DNA of 64,000 bases from Leucoraja erinacea (Eukaryota). The stretch lies in the NCBI RefSeq assembly GCF_028641065.1, contig NC_073387.1:28706001-28770000 (forward strand). The letters run 5' to 3'. This document shows positions 197 to 63,057 of the stretch, piece after piece (positions within the stretch are counted from its first letter, which is position 1; every line of letters begins with the position of its first letter). The notes beneath the pieces were generated by a model. The model worked only from the letters and a program-made list of their open reading frames with translations. It did no database searches and was not told where the DNA came from. The position numbers and the translations under genes were made by a program.

Positions 197-1480
197 TTAT
201 ATTTCCCTTACCTCACATAATTCAATATCCTTCTCCTTGGCGAATACCGAAGAAAAGAAATTGTTCAATATCTCCCCCATCTCTTTTGTCTCAGCAGATA
301 GCTGTCCACTCTGACTCTCTAATGGACCAATTTTATCCCTCGTTATCCTTTTGCTATCAATATAGCTGTAGAAACCCTTTGGATTTACTTTCACCTTACT
401 TGCCAAAGCAACCTCATATCTTCTTTTAGCTTTTCTAATTTATTCTTAAGATTCTTTTTACATTCTTTATACTCCTCAAGCACCTCATTTACTCGATGCT
501 GTCTATAATTATTGTAGATCTCTCTCTTTTTCCAAACCAAGTGTCCAATTTCCCTTGAAAACCATGGCTCTTTCCAATTTTTATTATTTCCTTTCAACCG
601 AACAGGGACATAAAGATTCTTTACTCTTAAAATTTCACCTTTAAATGTCCTCCATTTCTCTTCCACATCTTTCCCATAAAACAAACTGTCCCAATTTACT
701 CCTTTTAAATCCTTTCGCATCTCCTCAAAGTTAGCCTTTTTCCAATCAAAAATCTCAACCCTAGGTCCAGTTCTGACCCTCTCCATAATTATATTGAAAC
801 TAATGGTATTGTGATCACTGGTTCCGAACTGTTCCCCAACGCATACCTCTGCCACCTGACCCGTCTCATTTCCTAACAGGAGGTCCAGCACCGCCCCTTC
901 TCTAGTAGGTACTTCTATGTATTGCTGCAAAAAACTATCCTGCACACATTTTACAAACTCCAACCCATCCAGCCCATTTACAGAATGTGTTTCCCAGTCT
1001 ATGTGTGGAAAATTGAAATCTCCCACAATCACTACCTTGTGCTTACTACTAATATCTGCAATCTCCTTACATATTTGCTCTTCCAATTCTCTCTCCCCAT
1101 TTGGCGGTCTATAATACACCCCTATAAGTGTTGCTACCCCTTTCCCATTTCTCAGTTCCACCCAAATAGCCTCCCTAGACGAGCCCTCTAATCTATCCTG
1201 CCAAAGCACTGCTTTAATATCTTCCCTGATAAGCAATGCAACACCTCCACCTCTTGCCCCTCCAATTCTATCACACCTGAAGAAACGAAATCCTGGAATA
1301 TTTAGTTTCCAATCACAGCCCTCCTGCAACCATGTTTCACTGATCGCCACAACATCATACTTCCAGGTGTCAATCCAGGCTCTAAGTTCATCCACCTTTC
1401 TTACAATGCTCCTAGCATTAAAATATACACATTTAAGAAACCCACCCTCTCTTATTCTCTGTTTATTTACTTTTTCTTCT
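197..1480 (-). CDS. CR1 ORF2 N-terminal half (APE endonuclease plus linker), frameshifted near 440
   Basis: YFNARSI, ISETW, GGGVAL, GVYYRPP, VGDFNFP, LDLLL, SDHN; continues in ORF 197..406 (NPKGFYSYI, LNNFFSSVF). Confidence 0.9.
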
Positions 1481-1580
1481 CTCTCCCCTACATTTTGGGT
1501 CAGAGTGTTACCATTCTCTGCCTCCTGCCTCACACACTGACTGCTAGCTTTCCCAATTTGAGTCCCTCCCCCCAACCATA

Positions 1581-2240
1581 CTAGTTTAAAGTCTCCCCAG
1601 TAGCCTTTGCAAATCTCCCCGCCAGGATATTGGTCCCCCTCGAGTTCAAGTGCAACCCGTCCTTTCTGTACAGGTCGCACCTTCCCCAAAAGAGGTCCCA
1701 ATGATCCAGAAACTTGAATCCATACCCACTGCACCAGTCCCTCATCCACTCATTTATCCTCCACCTCGCTCCATTCCTACTCTCACTGTCGCGTGGCACA
1801 GGTAGTAATCCTGAGATTCTTACCTTTGCAGTCCTTCTCCTTAACTCTCTACCTAACTCCCTAAATTCTTCTTTCAGGACCTCTTCTCTTTTTTTACCTA
1901 TGTCGTTGGTACCTATATGTACCACAAACTCAGGCTCCTCTCCCTCCCATTTCAGGATTTCTTGGACACGTTCAGACACATCCCTGCCCCTGGCACCAGG
2001 GAGGCAAACTACCATCCGAGTCTCCTGTCTGCGTCCACAGAATCGCCTATCCGACCCCCTGACTATAGAGTCCCCTATTACAATTGCCCTCCCCTTCTTT
2101 TCCTTACCCTTCTGAGCAACAGGACTGGTCTTTGTGCCAGAGGCCCAGCTGCTGTCGCTGCCCCCAGGTAGGCTGTCTCCCCCACCCTTACTCAAACATG
2201 AGTACTTATTTTCAAGGTGTACAGCCACCGGGGTACTCAC
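1581..2240 (-). CDS. CR1 ORF1, SGNH/GDSL esterase-like domain
   Basis: Motifs IGDSIVRG, CLPGA, VHIGTND and DGLHLN in an uninterrupted 219-aa ORF. Confidence 0.9.
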   Translation of the reverse strand: MSTPVAVHLENKYSCLSKGGGDSLPGGSDSSWASGTKTSPVAQKGKEKKGRAIVIGDSIVRGSDRRFCGRRQETRMVVCLPGARGRDVSERVQEILKWEGEEPEFVVHIGTNDIGKKREEVLKEEFRELGRELRRRTAKVRISGLLPVPRDSESRNGARWRINEWMRDWCSGYGFKFLDHWDLFWGRCDLYRKDGLHLNSRGTNILAGRFAKATGETLN

Positions 2241-2285
2241 CAGTCCCTGCCTCTGCCCATTGCCCTTCCTAACTGTGACCCAGTT

Positions 2286-2348
2286 TATTCAGATTCAGAT
2301 TCAGATTCAACTTTAATTGTCATTGTCAGTGTACAGTACAGAGACAAC
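2286..2348 (-). mobile_element. Short 3' end of a Rex1/L2-like non-LTR element with (GAATCT)n tail
   Basis: (attcag)n followed by actttaattgtcattgtcagtgtacagtacagag. Confidence 0.5.
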
Positions 2349-23079: not shown

Positions 23080-23215
23080 GGGGTGGGAGATTGCAATTTT
23101 CACATGGTCCGCCCTGTTTTGACGAATGCAATCAACCTGGCATGCACAATCAAGTAAGATCAAATAGAACAAGTTGTTCTACAACATTAGGAGAAGAAGG
23201 AGAAGAAGGAGAGAA
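23080..23215 (+). mobile_element. Short Ingi/Vingi-like retroposon with 5' HDV-like ribozyme (23080-23133)
   Basis: Homologous to 61691-61835; purine tail runs into the assembly gap. Confidence 0.7.
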
Positions 23216-26039: not shown

Positions 26040-27480
26040 TCAGCATGTACCAACCTGAATGTTCATGCTTACAGGCAAAGAAAAATCAAAAGTGCATGCT
26101 GAACTACAGTGGCCATATAAAAAGGGAGTAACGGAGGAAACCCAACACGAATCACAGGAATTTGAGTCCAAAATCTTTATCATAAACAAGATGGTGGTTG
26201 CCGCATTATCATAGATTTGACTAATTTTAATACTTTCGTACTGTATATTCATTACTAGATGGAAACCTTTGTTACTGCTAAGCAATTGATTTCCTAGGTT
26301 ACTACATGGCAAGCATCGTTTTAAAAGATGCTTACTATACAGTACCCATTAGATGTGACCACAGATGTTATTTAACACAATGGATCATCTGGGGTTCACC
26401 CTTAACTCAGTTCTCAGTGACTTTGCCGAAAGAAAAGGTTACAGCCTTCATGGAGACTTGCAGCAAAATCATTGACATCACAAAACCATCCATCAGACTG
26501 GTAGCAAGAATAATTGGCATTATAGTGGCTGCGTTTCCAGCCACACAAATCGGACCTTTACATTATCAAAAATTACAGAGGGCTAAAATACGAGCACTCA
26601 AAAAATTATGGTGGTCATTTTGACAGACCAATGAAGCTACCAACAAAGGCCATAATGGAGCTAAAATGATGGAAAGATAACATTAGGCATTGTTCCAATC
26701 CAAACATTATCAGCTACCCGTTTATGGAACTACAAACTGATGCCAGTGCACTTGGATGGGGTGCTACCAATTCCATCTCCAGCTGTGGGGGAGATGGAAT
26801 GCACAGGAAGCATCATTATTACAAACACTGGCATATTCATAAACTACCTGGGAATGTTAAGTGCATTCCATGGCCTTAAGTCATATTGTTCTGGGTTATA
26901 TCACCAGCATGTTAGACTACAAATTGACAACACCACCGTGGTAGCATATATCACCCATATGGGTGGAAACAAATCGACATTATGTGACAATCTGACCAAC
27001 ACAATTTGGCAATAGTGTAGCCAGAGAGAGATATTTGGATATCAGCTACCTACTTACCAGGTAAACTAAATTTAGTGGCAGACAACAGGTCACGCAAATT
27101 CAATGAAAACACTGAATGGATGTTGGATAAAAATGTATTTGCTGAAATTACAGCATGGTATGGAACACCAGATATCGATCTAGTCGCATCCAGGCTCACA
27201 CCAGCTATCGAATTATGTTCATGGGAACCAGAACCTGGGACAGTGGCAACAGATGCTTTTTCGCTGCATTGGGGGATTGTTTATTTATGCATTTCGCATT
27301 TATGCATTCCCTCCTTTCTGCCTCATCAGTCGGGTATTTAGGAATATACAGCAAGACTCCGCGTCTGGTATTTTGATAGTACCCGATTGGCCTACTCAAT
27401 CATGGGTCCCGGTGATACTCGACATGGTATTAGAACCATGCATCACCATCCATCATAGACCTAATTTACTGGTTCATCCC
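26040..27480 (+). pseudogene. DIRS pol remnants: RT (LKDAYYTVPI), RNase H (TDAS..GWG, IDNTTVVAYI..MGG, ADNRSR) and methyltransferase-like domain (DIDLVASR, YAFPPF, PDWPTQSW)
   Basis: Motifs spread over several frameshifted ORFs. Confidence 0.85.
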
Positions 27481-27575
27481 GCAATAAGGGATGGGAAGTA
27501 CTGTCACAACAATAAACATTACCCACAGATCTAAGAACATCCCGTCTGTTCTGGAATTCCTGGCAAGCCTCCATT

Positions 27576-28286
27576 ATGATGAGAGGCTCAGTCATAGTGC
27601 CATCAACTGTGCCAGAAGTGCTCTGTCAACATACCTGTGGCAAGGAACAGAGCGGCATTCTGTTGGGACACACCCTGGTAACCAAACTCATGAGGGGCAT
27701 TTTTAATGTTAATCCCCCAAGAACCAGGTACTCCCAAATATGGGATGTGAGCATTGTACTGACCATGTTAAGAAACTGGTCTCCAGCTACAGCTCTGTCC
27801 CTACAGAAACTGACTATGAAAACAGTCATGCTGATGGCCTTGGTCACGGCACAAAGGGTCCAGTCACTACAGAAACTAAGGCTGGACAACATGACTATTT
27901 CATCTGGAAATTTAACTTTTCACATCAATGAATTAGTCAAACAAAACAGACAGGGGTCAGCAGGCCTAAAAACAGAATTCAGGGCCTATCCGACAGATGA
28001 TCGTCTCTGTATTGCAACACACTTACTATTATATATGGAGTATACTAAGATCATCAGAGGGAAAGAATTGTCACTTTTAATCAGCTACAAACAGCCACTC
28101 AAAACAGTGACAGTCCAGACCATCTCTAGATGGCTAAAACAGGTCCTAATAAATGCTGGAGTAGACACTAGCATTTTAAAATCTCACTCCACCAGGGCTG
28201 CAGCTACATCGGCAGCTATGAAGTTGGATGTTCCTATGAACCAAATCCTCAAAACAGCAGGATGGTCAACGGAGAAAACTTTCTAA
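27576..28286 (+). CDS. DIRS tyrosine recombinase, prematurely terminated
   Basis: LVTAQRVQSL, TISRWLK, HSTRAAATS, AGWSTEKTF; stop precedes the expected catalytic Tyr (next codons RFYNKP). Confidence 0.9.
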   Translation: MMRGSVIVPSTVPEVLCQHTCGKEQSGILLGHTLVTKLMRGIFNVNPPRTRYSQIWDVSIVLTMLRNWSPATALSLQKLTMKTVMLMALVTAQRVQSLQKLRLDNMTISSGNLTFHINELVKQNRQGSAGLKTEFRAYPTDDRLCIATHLLLYMEYTKIIRGKELSLLISYKQPLKTVTVQTISRWLKQVLINAGVDTSILKSHSTRAAATSAAMKLDVPMNQILKTAGWSTEKTF

Positions 28287-31200
28287 CGATTTTATAACAA
28301 ACCAGTCATTGAACCTGGAACATTTGCAGAAACAATTTTAAGTTCTGTAATATAATTTACCCCATAAATAGGGGCTATAATTTGGTGTTAATATATTTAT
28401 CGTTGGATTTTCAATATTGAATTGATGTCTAATGATGTTAACACTATTCTCCCCATAATCAAGGCAGATGTGATGCATGGACTCGTTTCCACGGCATGAA
28501 ATCACAGAGCTTTAAAATCTTCACGTAGTCACTCACGTGGCTCCGACGTAAAATAGTAAGATTAAACGAGAACTTACCAGTTTGAAGTTTGATCGTTATT
28601 TTATGAGGAGTAACGTTGAGGGATTATGTGCCCTCCGCTCCCACCCTTGATCATATACTCAACTGGTATCTCTTCTCTAATCTTACTATGTTTAGTCATT
28701 ACAGTTATCTGTGATTTCACACCGCTGCTTTGAAGAATGACACGCATGCATCCTGGCGGGGTTCTTCACGTAATCCCTCAACGTTACTCCTCATAAAATA
28801 ACGATCAAACTTCAAACTGGTAAGTTCTCATTTAATCTTACTATTTACAGCCCATTCACCAGCAAAGACAATACAGATTTTCCAGCCACTATTGCTATTG
28901 CAATTTTCTTTGCATGATTGACTTAGTGAAATGCCAGTACATTTGGAAGTCAATCCATTCTCTTGGGCTATAATGATGTTTATTCCATGTACATATATAT
29001 AAATCTGGAGTGAGATTATGACTGATCTGATTGTTAAGCTCAGTTCCAGAAATCTACCTACCTATCTACCTAACTTCACCTGGTAGCCTTTCACCCCACC
29101 TGCTTATCAAGAATTTTTCTACCCAAGCCTTAAAAATATTCGAAGGCTGCATTCAAATCATTTGAGGAATTGAGCCACGACCCACTGCCTTAAGTGAGTG
29201 AACCCTTATTTTCAAACAATAACTCCCCATTGTACATTTTCACACAGGAGAACAAAGAGAACCTGTTGCTCCCCTCAATATAAAATTAATTCTTGACAGA
29301 ATCACTCCAATTGGTATTTCAGCATTTTGTGTCTACCTTCAATTTAAACCAGCATCTGCAGTTCTTTCCTAAACCAATTGGTATTTAATTGATCACATTG
29401 AATGGCAATGCTGGCTCGAAGGGCCGAATGGCCTACTCCTGCACCTATTGTCTTTTGTCTATTGAAAGTAATATTTTACTTTTATTATGGAATTCTAAGG
29501 ACTATGAGACTTATTCATCTGGATGCAATTGTATCAGACAATGAGGAAAGTCTTTGTCCCAGAGTGGAATTAAACATGAATGAACATAGGTTACTTACAA
29601 GATATGGCACTTAGTAATTTCCCTGACTGATAAAAAACAAACGTGGAAAGTAAAAAAGTAGGCTCTTTTCTGACAGTCATTCAGTAGTAGTAGTCTCATT
29701 TCTCTCTTGCTGTCTATCCTAGAATGAACAGACAGAGCACCCTATATGTTGTTTGTGGCTAGAAAGCTGACATTCCAAATATTTTTAATAATTGTCCAAG
29801 ATTATTTAGGTTTCCAAAAATGGTTCATAACAACATAAGAAATGAAGGAGTAAGCCCTGCAGAAAGACATTTTCCTTACCTTATTTCTAAATGGCTCATT
29901 GCCTAAAATGGGCAAATATCCTCTTGTTGGAGGGATCAGTGTTTCAGCATCTTCCCTCGGCATCAACATTCTTATCTTTCTTACTATTACTGTATATTTC
30001 AAGCTCTTTGCAATGAAGTTCTCATACTTTTTGCCTCTCTAATTGTTCACTCAATCTGCATGTTTGCCTCTCACATCTCATCATTTAGTTATTAGTACAT
30101 AAAGATTTATTCCAAACTAATATTTACTAGTTTCTCACTATTTAAAATGTATTCTGTTTTTTCCATTTGGCCTACTAAAGTGAAAATCCCCAGATTATCC
30201 AACGTTATATTTAATTTATCTTCTTGTTCACTGGTTTAATCTCTCTGGGTCTCTTTGTAGACTATTTCTGTCCTCATTAGCTTAATACCATAAGTAAATT
30301 TGAATACGTTACAATCTGTCTTTTCACTTGTGGTTTATATCAAATGTGAATAGCTGACGCTGGGATTTTGATGTTTGTGGCACCTTATTAGAAGTAATAA
30401 TACATTCTGTTTATTCCTGTTCCTATCTTTTCACAACTCTCCATGTTTATACATGGCCAGGTCCATGAGTCCTTTGGTTATACAAATGTTTGCTGTGTTA
30501 CCTAATCAAATGCTTTTTGAAAATCCAAATATATTTCAAGCACTGATTCTTGCATTTCTCCCTCCTTCTTAGCAATCGTTTGGGGGCGAGAATGACTTGC
30601 TTCCAGTCCTGTCGGAATACCAACTCATAAACTATACACATGTGCCCCATCAGATATCCTCCCGCCTCTGCTGTGGCCATTGTAGGATTCAGAAACTAAA
30701 ACAGATGGAGCAAGAGGTGCTTGATGGGGCAGGTATGTGGATAGTTATGAGGTGTATGCTCCTTTCACCATTAATCCTGGACTTCTGTGTTCCCCCAATG
30801 GAACCAAAGGTCTCAATGTCATCCTGAATGCTTCTTCTCCACTTTGAGCGTCAATGGCCAGTATTCCCAGGAGTCAGCGAGGCCATTGCAATTTACCAAG
30901 GATACTTTGAGTATATCTTTAAATAATTTCCTTTCTAAACCAGAATATTACTTACTATTGCAGCCTTTAGAATGGCGTACAGGCAATCCTTACATTGCAG
31001 GAGTTGGTTATATTCCGAGAAAATGGCAGAACTGGCATAAAGAGCTTGGACAGCTCAAAATGTGTTAAATGTGAGCAGGGAGGCTTATTTAATGAATATA
31101 TAGAGAGACCTATTGGAGAGGACTCAAAACTAGACCTCTTCTAAGAATCAAAGGAGACCAAGTGACTGAAGCGTCAGGTGGGAGCAGGTTGGTGCTCCAG

Positions 31201-48264: not shown

Positions 48265-48515
48265 CTTTTTTTCCTTTTCAAAAACTTTATTCAGCACAAA
48301 CCCATGATACATCACATCAAAAACACAATCAGAAGTTACAATGTATCAAATAATCATTACAATACAATGATTCATTATTTACGATACTCTCAACCCCACG
48401 CGGTGACCAGCGCCCACAGAAGGCCTCCAGAGTCCCCGTGAACACTGCGTGTTCCCTCTCCAGGGACACGCGCGCACGGACGTAGGCCCGGAAGAGGGGT
48501 AGGCAGCCGACTCTA
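48265..48515 (-). mobile_element. Tx1/L1-clade LINE 3' end
   Basis: Minus strand CLPLFRAYVRARVSLEREHAVFTGTLEAFCGRWSPRG, then AATAAA and an A-rich tail. Confidence 0.75.
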
Positions 48516-54596: not shown

Positions 54597-57500
54597 TGCA
54601 GTGCGACAATTCCGAAATGAAGGCGAGGAGCCAGGTGCTTCGGGAGGTATTTTCACTAGGGGTCCTTCTCCTTACCAGAAGAGCCTGCTAAAGGAAGATG
54701 GCACCTAAACCCCTGCCCTTTATCCCTCTAGCTAAGGGCCGCCTCCGAACTCATCCATTCCCGTGCCGAGGGGTTTGATAGTGGGAATGGCCCACCCTTG
54801 GGAGCCGCGACAGGATCCCCCCCACCCAGAACCAGAGGCACGAAATGCACCGGCGGGCGTACAACCCGACCAAACCGCGTACAGAAGTCGGCCAACCGAG
54901 GGGCTGGTGGAGACACAGGTGGAGGGACAGGCAGAAGGACAGGTGGAGTGACATGCGGAGGGAGCCGCGAAGGGGGGCGAGTTTGCTACCGAGTCTGGGC
55001 AAACAGCACCGGCTGGTCAATGTCCAAATGTGCCGGTTTTAACCAGTCAATCGACACGGCCTCCGGCCGGCCCCCCATGTCCGACTCAAAGGTCATCTGT
55101 CCGTGCTCCAGCATGTGGAACGGGCCCTCATACGGCCTCTGGGGTGGTGTCCGGTGGGCATTAGGGCACAGGAAAATGTAGGGGTATCCCGGAGGGCCGA
55201 TGGCACGTGCGGGCGAAATGTCCCATGGCGGGACGTCGGCATTGGCGCATGCCTGCCAACTCGCTCATGAAGGAGCTGTAGAGTGGATGCGGGCAGTCCC
55301 TGCTGCCCCGACGCCGACGGCACACACTACCAGAGCACCGTGAGTGGTGATCCGTAAACGAGCTCCGCTGAGGATGAAGCCAAATCCTCCTTAGGAGCAG
55401 TTTGGGTGCCCAGCAAGACCCACAGCAGTTCGTGCATCTAGTCCGGCCAGAGAGTCGTGCCTTCAGCGCCGTGTCGAGCTGCCGGTCGAACCTCTCCACC
55501 AGGCTGTTTGTTTGCAGATGATAGGCTGTGGTGTGGTGCAGCCGCACACCCAACAAGTGAGCCATGCGCAACTACAGCTCGGAGGTGAAATGTGGCCCCC
55601 GGTCCGAGGAGATGTCCACCGGCACCCCAAAATGAGCAATCCAGCGCGCGGACAATGCACGAGCGCACGTAGCCGTTGATGTTTCGGCCAGCAGTCTGGC
55701 CTCCGGCCACCGCATGATGCGGTCCACCAACCTGAGGAGGTGGGCGATGCCCCGGGACGGCGGGAGAGGCCCCACAATGTCCACATGGAGATGGTCGAAA
55801 CGCCGGCGAGGTAGACTGAACTCCTGGAGGGGCGCCCGGACATGGCGCTGGAATTTTGCCGTTTGGCACGGAATGCGGATGCGGGCCCAGTGGCCATCCT
55901 GCTTGCGTAGACCGTGCCACATGAAATGAGCGGCCACTAGTGCCGTCGTCGCCTGGATGGATGGGTGAGCCAGCCTGTGGATAATGTTGAAAACCCTCTG
56001 GCTTACGGTGATAAAACGCCACCATCCCGACAAACTCCTGCAGGCCGCGCACAGTGTATGGACGGGGAAATCTACAGATGGCGTCGACCATGTCCGGCAG
56101 GGGAACCGCGCTTTGCGAAGTCACGCGGTGGCGGAGGAAGTCGATGGTGGTCATCCCAAAACGGTACTAGCGAGGTTGACAGCCAAGCCATGCTCACTGA
56201 GCCGATGACAGAGCTGCCAGAGGTGGGCACAGTGCTCCTGCCCCGAGACAAAAACAAACTCGAGGCCGCATCACCTCGTCCACCAACTGTGCCTGCGCAG
56301 CGTTCTTATGGCCGAACAGCATCCGCACAAACTCGTACAGCCCGAACGGCGTGATGATTGTCGTCTTGGGTACATCCTTCGGGTGGACCGGGATCTGGTT
56401 ATATCCCCGTACCAGATCCACTTTGGAGAAAATAGTAGCCCCGGCCAAATGGGCATTGAAGTCCTGGATGTGGGGTACGGGGTATCGGTCTGCGGTGGTT
56501 GCGGCATTCAGTCGCTGATAATCACCGCAAGGTTGCCAGCCCCTGCTTGCCTTAGGGACCATGTGGAGTGGGGTCACCCATGGGCGGTTTGAAGGGTGGA
56601 TGATCCACAAGGACTCCATCGTTCGGAACTCCTGCCATGCCAGACGTAGCTCATACGGCGGCAGTCGGCGTGCTCGTGCATGGAGAGGTGGGCCGGTAGT
56701 CGGTATGAAATGAACCACCCTGTGCCTGGGGGTCGATGACCGAAACTGTGGGGTCAGGATGTCAGGGAACGTGGCAAAGGCCCGAGCAAAGCAGGAATCC
56801 ACGGACGACAGGGGGCGTCCAACCGGCTCATCCAATCACAGTGTGATCGGCTCCATTGTGGCGGCGTGGACCAAGCGCTGACGCCTGATGTCCACCAGAA
56901 GGAAATGAGCCCGGAGGAAGTTGGTACCGAGCAACGGCTGGGAGACATCAGCGATAGTAAAACTCCACGAGATATTTCAGGAGCCGAACACGATCAGGAC
57001 CCTGCGAAGCCCATATGTGCGAATGGGTTGTGACAGGCCCCCCGCTTACTGGAACGAATGTCTGCCAGCGAAGAAGGCAGGACGCTCAGCTCTGCCCCGG
57101 TATCCATGAGGAAGCAGCTCCCGGAGCGTCGATCCCAGGCGAAGAGGCGGTGAAATAGCTGGCCGCCGCGGGGACTATTGGCAGCCGGCCCTGGCATTTC
57201 CTGGGAACGTGCATGGCTGACGGCATTGCCATGCTGCAGCACCCCAGCGCTAGTGGTAATAGCACCAGCACCTCCTGCTGGTGGCGCTTGGAGCCTGTTG
57301 GTGCTGGACTGCAGGTGCAGTACCTGCCATGGCCGCGGGGGGGTGATCGTACAGGCCTCTGGGATGCAGCTGTCACTCCTTCCACAGCTCCCCCGCCCCA
57401 CCGGAAGAAATCGGGCGCTGCCGGAGTGACGTCATCCTGGCGTGCTGTCCTCAGCACATCAGCGCACCTGCCGACGGCAAGTGCATTGACGTCATCTGGG

Positions 57501-57790
57501 CGCGCCATCCAAGGGCCCTGATGTCGGCGAAGGAGGCGTTGTTGAGTTGTAGGCGGATGTAGGCCGGCAGCAGATGGAGGTAGGTGTACTCGAACATTAG
57601 GCATGTGCCCATCCAGGAGCGCGACCATCTCGTTTAGGAAGCTAAATGGCCGCCGGTCGCCTAGGCCCTCCATATGAATGAGCCTGGCAGCACACTCCAT
57701 CCCTCTAGCCAAGGGCCGCCTCCGGACTCATCCATTCCCGTGCCGGGGGGTTTGATAGTGGGAATGGCCCGACCCTTGGGAGCCGCCACA
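54597..57790 (-). mobile_element. Decayed Ty3/Gypsy LTR retrotransposon
   Basis: 3' LTR 54597-54812 (TG..CA) preceded by a polypurine tract; partial 5' LTR ~57700-57790; ATAT TSD; gag (LGDRRP), protease (FLMDTGAELSVLP), RT (DYQRLN, FSKVDLVRGYNQIP), integrase (HVDIVGPLP, SDRGPHFTSEL); RNase H region apparently deleted. Confidence 0.95.
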
Positions 57791-60650: not shown

Positions 60651-61690
60651 TTGATACTATCAGTTGCCAGGCTTTGCCCCACCTTAGACTTGGAAAAAGT
60701 GAGTGGAGTTAAAGAAGTTGTGCCATTCGAGAATAAAGGTAACCTGGTAAAGGAGGGTAATGATGGAGAATAACACATAGAGCTTGTAATTAAAGGAAGA
60801 AAGGAAGAAGCATTGTGTGGTGGGATTAAGGTGTAGCAGGACTGGATGTTCATGGCAAAGGTGACCTAGTTTAGAACAGTTGGGAACTACCAAAGTAGGA
60901 GATGATACCAGGAGTGTCATGGCCACTATGGGGGGGAAAGAAAAAAGTCAAGGTAGGAAAAAATAGGCGTTGTGGGGAAAGAGATTACCAAATCAATAGG
61001 TCACCAAGACAGTCCAGATAATAGTAGGTGTGTGTGATTGAGTTAGCTTGAAGCTGGTGGCATTGGTGTTGAGTGCTACAGTGGGTATGGACTTCCCATC
61101 ATCAATATGTCACAATGTAGCCAGAGTTTAAAGGGAAAAACGGAAATCATTCCATCACGCAAACCAACATCTCAAAAATCAAAGGCCCCTGGAAACCAAA
61201 CAAATCAGCAACTTCTGAAGAGTTAATACATTGCAATCTTTTTCCTCTTTTCATCACCTTATCATGAACACTCTTTGGTTCATGGTATTCTTTATTACGT
61301 GGGCAACAAACCATGTACAGACATGTAATAAATATTGGGCTGATCAGCATTAATGGAAGTGAAAAACCTCAACACGTTGTTAGTTTTCTCTTCCTGCTGC
61401 CCCACTTGAGATTAGTTACCTCACTGCAAACTGCTGAGTCATTTGTACAGCCTTTATTTTGCCATTTTTTTTTACAATCTTTGTCAAAGCCTCTTAATCA
61501 TTATGACAATTTGCCACAACTGATGTAGGTGACCTGGGGCGGAGGTGGACAATCTTGGTGACCAAGCCTATATTATAATTACCAAGTTCCCAAGGATTCA
61601 GCTCAGGTCAGGGATAAAGAGAAAATCTTATCCCACTGAAAATTGTTTACCACCACAGCAGACACTGGGCAATTTTTGATTAATTACTCT

Positions 61691-61835
61691 TCTTCTTCTT
61701 CTTCTTGCGTATGGCGTGCACAGCCTAAAATTGTCGGACAACTTGTTCTATTTGATCTTATTTAAATGTGCACGCCGGGTTGATTGCATTTGTCAAAACA
61801 GGGCGGACCACGTGAAGGTTGCAATCTCCCACCCC
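61691..61835 (-). mobile_element. Complete ~145-bp Ingi/Vingi-like non-autonomous retroposon
   Basis: 12-bp TSD ATTAATTACTCT (61679-61690) / ATTCATTACTCT (61836-61847); 3' end CCATACGC(AAG)n. Confidence 0.8.
61782..61835 (-). ncRNA. Minimal HDV-like self-cleaving ribozyme (predicted)
   Basis: P1 GGGGUGG/CCGCCCU, P2 GAUUGCA/UGCAAUC, P3 ACC/GGU, L3 UUCACGU, J4/2 CAAA. Confidence 0.75.
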
Positions 61836-63057
61836 ATTCATTACTCTGATCCATCTTGAAGATTTAATGAAAAGAAAAAAATGACAATAGCTTATTTCAC
61901 GTAGATATATTAACAATCACATTCTTGTTAAGATTGGAATTTTATGTAGTTATAATTTTACCAATAATTGTACAAATGTGCGAGACATATTTAAATGAAG
62001 AATGAGTCAATGTGATTTCATTGAGAGCAAATAATATTTAATAGAATTGGGATTGATAATGTTCACTTAGAATTCAGGATCATATTTCAATGTCTCACAT
62101 TATTTCCAAAGGGATGCCTTTGTCACTGGTCAGTGTGAGAATCACACAACCACATTAATTAGTCTCAATCCTTTTGAGCTTTCTGTTTGCAATGCTGATT
62201 GGGTCAATGCTCTGTAAATAGCAATGGAGGAACAGCTTTAAATAGCAATGAATAACCTCCCAGTGCCCCCATTGGCAACACTGCTCACAGCCTCCCATTT
62301 CTGGCCCAATCAGCAAGATTTTATCTTTAAATTCATGCAATTTTGACCAATAGTTCCAAAGTATAACATTTAAGACTAACACAGATTTAATCCATGACCA
62401 TTTACTGTGGTTTAAGATGGTGGTTAATAATCCATGACTATGCAGCCTTCAGAGAAGGTTGGCAGTCCTTAAAGGAGCACTTCCTATGACAGCCACACAA
62501 CAGCTGCACAAACTTAAAAAAGGGCAAATGCAGAAGAGAAGAAGACAGTTTCTACATTCCATCACATTACATGCAAATCATGGTCAGTCATACATAAGTC
62601 AGGTGGAATCTTCTGTGTACCAAGGAGAGTGTGGAGCTCTACAAGGCCAAGCTAGAGAAGACCCTGACAGGAGGTGGCTGCAGCAGTCTCCCCCTGGAGT
62701 GAGAATCCTTGCACAATGGAGTAACGTTTATAGAAATCTCATAACCCCATTAAAAATGACATTGATGATCTGTGCATAACTGTTTATTGAGACATAGAGC
62801 TCATAGCTCATGGCTCATACACGAGTACAGCACAGGAACAGGCCCTTCAGCCCACAATGTCTCTACCAGCATCCTACCTACTTAAAATAGTCCCTTCTGG
62901 CCTGACATTTCCCATATCCCTCCATTCTCTCACAGGAATCAAATGATACAGTTCAAACATATATTATAGCAAGCCATTAAAGTAGTTGGACCAGGGAGAC
63001 GTTAATTCACATGTTCTATTCTGTGCAGGTAAACCTGCAGTACAGGATGTGAACTAT

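Follow-up and report, generated by a model that had tools for sequence, protein, structure and literature searches.

The question raised by this locus is whether a short repeat on the minus strand, near the end of the 64,000-nucleotide stretch of Leucoraja erinacea DNA that was analysed (hereafter the window), begins with a self-cleaving ribozyme, and to which kind of mobile element it belongs. The earlier note had described a complete retroposon of about 145 bp at 61679–61847. An element of 145 nt was indeed delimited there, running from 61835 to 61691 and flanked by 12-bp duplications that are alike at 11 of their 12 positions, and each of the proposed parts of an HDV-like fold (P1, J1/2, P2, P3, L3, P1.1, and J4/2) was found in its place on the minus strand (Table 1). 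The remainder was likewise as described, i.e., with a stem (61776–61767 with 61722–61713) and a CCATACGC(AAG)6 end. The first 54 nt of the element are a P4-less HDV/CPEB3-type fold, for which self-cleavage is predicted.

Table 1. Coordinates of the retroposon, its parts, and related folds (window positions, unless a locus is named)
Feature	Position	Strand	Remarks
Complete retroposon, 145 nt	61835-61691	minus	framed by 12-bp target duplications
Target-site duplication, 5' copy, 12 bp	61836..61847	-	11/12 match to 61679-61690
Target-site duplication, 3' copy	61679..61690	-	11/12 match to 61836-61847
HDV-like (CPEB3-type) ribozyme fold of 54 nt, no P4; cleavage predicted 5' of G61835	61782..61835	-	fold descriptor and covariance-model hit
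P1 5' strand, pairs with 61800-61806	61829..61835	-	7 bp; G1-U and U5-G wobbles
J1/2, 2 nt	61828-61827	-	GA
P2 5' strand, pairs with 61782-61788	61820..61826	-	7 pairs
P3 helix and 7-nt L3	61807..61819	-	61819-61817 with 61809-61807; L3 = 61816-61810
G of single P1.1 pair (61799) and 6-nt loop in P4's place	61793..61799	-	
J4/2 with predicted catalytic C at 61792	61789..61792	-	4 nt
Part from Vingi-type LINE 5' end	61755..61835	-	69/81 alike to L137
13-nt junction, local duplication of preceding bases	61742..61754	-	read by eye
Part from LINE 3' end: last codons, stop, 3' UTR, tail	61695..61741	-	42/47 alike to L135
Long stem closing 3' half, 10 bp	61713..61776	-	arms 61767-61776 and 61713-61722
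CCATACGC(AAG)6 tail, common to element and LINE	61689..61714	-	
Second decayed family copy in window	23080..23191	+	88% over 112 nt; P3 and L3 damaged, 3' end gone
HDV-like folds directly upstream of Vingi-type ORFs, metagenome contigs	L180, L203/L221, L213/L234, L216, L232, L192, L235		
Second Vingi-type family heads, 74 nt including P4	L285:1382-1455, L287:1382-1455	+	contigs C34, C27
Vingi-type LINE 5' end above Rfam CPEB3 cut-off	L195:2606-2689	+	metagenome contigs; 55.6 bits, E 1.2e-12; also L196, L197, partial L218

The fold in the window copy and its family

All 18 pairs of the nested double pseudoknot (P1 with 7 bp, P2, P3 with 3 bp, and P1.1) are present in the window copy, together with the core features described for HDV-like ribozymes (PMC4836649, PMC10879173), i.e., a wobble at G1, where the cut would fall, U20 and G25 in L3, and the catalytic C leading J4/2. 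Moreover, its L3 loop is identical to that of the Rfam CPEB3 consensus. When dinucleotide shuffles were run through the same fold descriptor, 1 of 20,000 passed. Plain single-strand folding of the element yielded an unremarkable z of –0.66, as is to be expected from a method that cannot model a pseudoknot. In the Rfam scan of the window, the 54-nt head went undetected, with P4 missing and a score below the gathering threshold for the HDV-class families RF00094, RF00622, and RF02682; copy L004, which is closer to the family majority, was also missed.

Position by position, the majority of 25 full-length copies keeps all 18 pairs, the G1-U wobble, U20, G25, C22-G37, and the catalytic C, so that P1, P2, and P3, on whose preservation in a family consensus the first reading had been staked, are all retained. 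Following P1, the majority reads G-U-UUCG-A-C (22 of 25 copies). The former description of P4 as reduced to UUUUGA is thus accurate for the window copy but not as the family form, UUUUGA being a CpG-decayed version of it. Common head variants affect J1/2, the P4 loop, or the free base of J4/2, or convert the U5-G wobble to U-A, and the base following the catalytic C differs among copies (A, G, U, or C). No both-side (compensatory) change was found within the short family. A competing pairing of nt 2–5 with nt 56–59 is predicted as an alternative to P1, and could attenuate cleavage as downstream sequence does in L1Tc (PMC4035085).

In individual copies the fold is often damaged: only 8 of the 25 retain all pairs and core bases, and G25 is altered in 7. 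Together with a mean divergence from the majority of 6.6% in this set (4.3% for the window copy), this points to neutral decay, and most genomic copies, to judge from their sequences, decay neutrally after insertion, CpG sites first.

The genomic family and its LINE partner

The proposal that the element represents a ribozyme-headed, non-autonomous family was borne out when the suggested genome scan was run by pattern over 2.19 Gb. A 35-nt core pattern gave at least 2,758 matches (reversed control, 0), and a pattern for the 3' part at least 2,263. Among the first 30 loci of a 3'-anchored search, 25 copies begin at G1 when one substitution is allowed, four are truncated at the 5' end, and the remaining one is ambiguous; target duplications were recognized in 21 of the 30 copies vs. 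2 of 145 mismatched flank pairs. A larger set of 125 loci resolved into 86 distinct copies that passed the head and tail filters, including 66 with a duplication of 8–15 bp (mode 11–12). Of these 66, at most three carry an extra G before the element, a test that is blind if the element's first G is itself cap-derived. Such an extra, untemplated G is typical of full-length L1 insertions and a mark of capped RNA (PMC11702581).

An autonomous Vingi- or Ingi-type partner sharing both ends with the element had been predicted, and a Vingi-type LINE of this description was found in broken copies. Its tail, with the same 3' end, was recovered using a pattern that excludes the short family, and was then walked upstream. 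Three copies (L135, L136, and L137) are full-length or nearly so: within their target duplications they start with the head of the short element and finish with its tail. They are mutually 84–88% alike, are broken by stops and frameshifts, and align along nearly the whole of an intact 1019-aa relative, with its endonuclease (APE), RT, and C-terminal zinc motif. No match to RNase H was found in the LINE. By its domain layout the partner is a single-ORF Vingi-type LINE, the Vingi hallmark being a single ORF with APE and RT and no RNase H (PMC13708176), and it is linked to a named Vingi only via the published 5' end of Vingi-2_Gav (see below). Among at least 45 scored candidates, no intact copy of this LINE family was found. 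A hunt for the partner through an L063-type middle pattern returned short copies only, no relatives were found in viral contigs, and the solved structures retrieved were those of L1, R2, and group II RTs only. A protein of the eel Synaphobranchus kaupii (P0076) is 83% identical over two thirds of the LINE's 95-aa RT piece, and such close bony-fish relatives may point to horizontal spread.

The element shares the first 81 nt of the LINE (69 of 81 alike) and its last 47 nt (42 of 47 alike), which marks it as an internal-deletion derivative. Other short copies (L154, L044, and L063) have deletion junctions that differ from the main one and from which it follows that the deletion arose several times. 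The element thereby shows the features of a bipartite (SIDE-type) element, i.e., both LINE ends with the middle deleted, TPRT-style duplications, and a microsatellite tail. The label SINE-like, which had been given to it, does not hold in the Pol III sense, since this is rather a bipartite, internally deleted LINE. A Pol III SINE, in which a tRNA-like or other small-RNA head is joined to a Vingi tail, would agree with the short length and with the existence of SINEs with Vingi parts (PMC5786205). Nevertheless, this origin is extremely improbable: the head is the LINE's own 5' end, no tRNA was found, and the likeness to A and B boxes was matched by 1,129 of 5,000 shuffles, and a Pol III or tRNA head was rejected for these reasons.

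HDV-like folds in other Vingi-type LINEs and the CPEB3 ribozyme

A strict two-strand scan of 80 metagenome loci encoding relatives revealed HDV-like folds at five loci, all on the coding strand and just upstream of the ORF, and two further folds came from a less stringent scan of 25 loci that have a match at the N-terminus. Across five other Vingi-type heads (L203 was left out, since it aligned badly), the 18 pairs are kept in 96.7% of cells and both-side changes occur at 12 of the 18 pairs (0–2 of 500 shuffles), although this count is partly circular and leans towards structure because the heads were originally found by a pairing scan. In two tests free of this circularity, a covariance model built from these five heads alone ranked 61782–61835 first in the window (28.9 bits, E 2.6e-5), with the second family copy (23080–23191) ranked next. 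The same model gave nine matches in 29 further loci, again all on the coding strand upstream of Vingi-type ORFs. A second Vingi-type family in the same genome has a fold of its own, which starts at one and the same base in all 7 pattern matches and lies at the duplication boundary in L285. On this comparative evidence, an HDV-like 5' fold is a feature across Vingi-type families.

This second family looks younger (46–47% to P0004, with long open frames), and L298 is an internally deleted copy of it of about 480 nt. A third group of Vingi-like ORFs is present in the genome at 37–41% identity (e.g., L291 and L295); no fold was found upstream of the ORF of L291, which may be 5'-truncated.

Compared with these heads, the fold of the short family might be a degenerate relic, inactivated by loss of P4 and by the competing pairing, so that a promoter alone would set the 5' end. 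P4 spans 19–30 nt in all six other Vingi-type heads examined vs. 7 nt in the element, the head is missed by Rfam, and read ends do not pile up at G1. Moreover, all three LINE copies (L135, L136, and L137) carry an uncompensated A opposite G2 in P1, and a genome-wide search for compensation at this second pair gave 43 matches, with none of the 30 that were read being compensated. We nonetheless regard such inactivation as unlikely, since P4-less HDV-like ribozymes are active (PMC10879173), since the 18 pairs and the G1-U, U20, G25, C22-G37, and catalytic C features persist position by position in the majority of copies, and since variants at the subfamily level spare pairs and core bases alike.

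When Vingi-type heads were compared with Rfam, L195 matched the CPEB3 family at 55.6 bits (cut-off 35). Below the cut-off, L287 reached 26 bits with the CPEB3 family and L213 reached 30.5 bits with another HDV family. For the gharial Vingi-2_Gav, the first 74 nt are given in the supplement of PMC5786205, along with an alligator SINE carrying them. Compared by eye, Vingi-2_Gav and the Rfam CPEB3 consensus agree at 51 of the 53 positions that lie outside the P4 loop, and the alligator SINE resembles this consensus in P4 as well. Given this near-identity and the old Vingi trace reported in humans (PMC5753468), the mammalian CPEB3 ribozyme likely descended from a Vingi 5' end. CPEB3 goes unmentioned in PMC5786205, a literature search joining CPEB3 with Vingi found no paper, and in a term search a study on ancestral CPEB3 ribozymes (PMC8233481) lacked 'origin', 'transpos', and 'retro'. 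The near-identity suggests an origin, open to testing, for the most thoroughly studied ribozyme of mammals.

Proposed release of the element and comparison with known systems

In our reading, the element is very probably a non-coding deletion derivative of a Vingi-type LINE, whose 5' HDV-like fold would self-cleave before G1 and free a unit-length RNA. The parts of this reading with direct support are the shared LINE ends, the 8–15-bp duplications, the copy number, the G1-fixed 5' end, and the fold across Vingi-type families. If the example of R2, L1Tc, and CPEB3 holds, a copy would be transcribed inside a longer Pol II RNA, after which the head would fold and cut before G1 in a presumably Mg2+-dependent reaction with catalysis by C44, as in HDV and CPEB3. 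A Vingi protein might then recognize the 3' tail in trans, and target-primed reverse transcription at the nick would yield a full-length copy with a target duplication. Release by self-cleavage before G1 would explain both the fixed 5' end without carry-over of flanking sequence and the rarity of the cap G.

RNA reads were consulted in runs X12 and X15, which look stranded and in which family reads are abundant. First mates on the minus strand exceed those on the plus strand 2.5–4.6-fold in X12 and 1.3–3.6-fold in X15, with the ratio climbing towards the ribozyme end, a strand reading that assumes the usual first-mate orientation opposite to the RNA in libraries of uncalibrated direction. If the orientation is the usual one, antisense copies make up most of those transcribed, and the share of sense copies drops towards G1, which fits a loss of sense copies. 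Retroposons often show an antisense bias. Neither X12 nor X15 had a listed pile-up of read ends at G1, and many family reads run through the 5' junction into unrelated flanks (891 and 610 loose ends in X12, not assigned to a strand).

The family had been described as promoterless, but the head might also be both promoter and ribozyme, as the Pr77 of L1Tc and NARTc is, in which case Pol II would start at or near G1 and the ribozyme would only trim the transcript. Such an arrangement is compatible with an active fold and has a precedent in the sister clade, where the same 77 nt serve as promoter and ribozyme (PMC3383444); an internal promoter would be useful to a dispersed LINE, and the flanks of the window copy are free of RNA coverage. 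It is possible but on balance doubtful, since capped starts would be expected to leave an extra G (at most 3 of 66 copies) and since family reads mostly continue into unrelated flanks, as read-through transcripts would.

The window copy itself had been placed on the same strand as candidate host exons, with the suggestion that it could cleave an intron, and neither point found support. Across the window and 40 kb of flanking sequence, a rough splice and exon scan identified no host gene, Pfam searches with nine candidate exons and homolog and representative searches of 30994–31140 returned only a chance repeat protein, and no spliced joint was found in 44–64 kb among those listed (183 weaker ones besides). 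RNA depth on the flanks of the copy was zero in both X12 and X15 (6% and 25% of the runs read, respectively). Both junctions of the copy are bridged by contigs from two other organisms (A and B), and therefore the insertion is shared and not recent. While this presence in the runs of two other organisms, the intact fold, and the CPEB3 precedent (PMC10919898) are what a regulator cutting a same-strand host-gene intron would lead one to expect, such a role is very unlikely with neither a gene, a spliced joint among those listed, nor flanking RNA depth found in the ranges and runs just given.

With self-cleavage before G1 as the preferred reading, the closest known counterparts are found among trypanosomatids, where NARTc, RIME, and SIDERs (of Ingi/L1Tc) are likewise short and non-coding and combine a 5' HDV-like ribozyme with the 3' end of a LINE of the APE type; for such elements, cleavage at +1 has been shown in vitro (PMC4035085, PMC3383444). 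They belong, however, to protists and to a sister clade with RNase H, and have a 77-nt head with P4 and a proven promoter, whereas the present element has a Vingi-type partner, a 54-nt P4-less fold, an animal genome, and more than 2,700 copies. The R2 SIDEs of Drosophila similarly combine a 5' ribozyme with a 3' end through internal deletion and are released from a co-transcript (PMC3414825), but these are rDNA site-specific, rare, and dependent on an RLE endonuclease, while the element is dispersed with 8–15-bp target duplications. The non-autonomous derivatives of hedgehog Vingi-1_EE share its clade and its internal-deletion origin (as cited in PMC5786205).

As for the fold, the mammalian CPEB3 ribozyme (RF00622) has in common with it the 7-nt L3, a single C-G pair as P1.1 followed by U, the G1-U wobble, and the 4-nt J4/2 (PMC4836649). 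It differs in being single-copy, intronic, and endowed with P4, and the element scores too weakly for Rfam whereas other Vingi heads match closely. Minimal HDV-like and theta ribozymes also do without a P4 domain (PMC10879173), but those described there come from metagenomes and from gut phages beside tRNA genes, and not from the heads of animal retroposons.

Ribozyme-headed deletion derivatives and P4-less ribozymes are thus known already, and the novelty here lies in the clade (Vingi), in how minimal the fold is, and in the number of copies. In its available sections, PMC5786205 leaves Vingi out of the ribozyme-bearing clades, Vingi derivatives themselves being known. Searches confined to published papers, on Vingi together with ribozymes, non-autonomous elements, or sharks, on HDV-like ribozymes in connection with SINEs, vertebrates, and Ingi, and on minimal HDV-like ribozymes, turned up neither a Vingi ribozyme nor this family. 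This bears on the question, posed in PMC5786205, of why only RTE, Ingi, Vingi, and R2 form bipartite non-autonomous copies: Vingi is the sole one of the four with no reported ribozyme and, with one, all four would share it. P4-less HDV-like ribozymes would in turn gain a function and a home in animal genomes, with thousands of natural variants for structure-function tests. Moreover, engineering of Vingi-1 for gene insertion is under way with the native 5' UTR in place (PMC13708176), and a self-cleaving head would bear on template design. We lean, if only slightly, towards the wider view that the Vingi clade carries a 5' HDV-like ribozyme, that the 145-nt family is a near-minimal self-processing retroposon which has seeded thousands of P4-less ribozymes cutting sense transcripts, and that the CPEB3 ribozyme of mammals was domesticated from a Vingi 5' end of this kind.

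Some further repeats were noted along the way. A repeat end with a CCATACG motif and an AATAAA-type tail lies on the reverse strand of L006 near 2500–2570, and possibly belongs to another Vingi-dependent family. In the window, direct repeats of about 90 bp (94.6% alike) at 54722–57790 surround disrupted minus-strand frames resembling RT and integrase, an arrangement that looks like an LTR retroelement. By eye, 391–2288 (minus strand) holds the 5' part of a CR1-type LINE, with frames for an esterase-like ORF1 and an endonuclease that stay open for 235 and 452 codons, and 26282–28286 (plus strand), with RT/RNase H-like and tyrosine-recombinase-like frames, resembles a DIRS-type element. Finally, run X6 has about 60 reads, all on one strand, at 48383–48416, many of which start at 48416.
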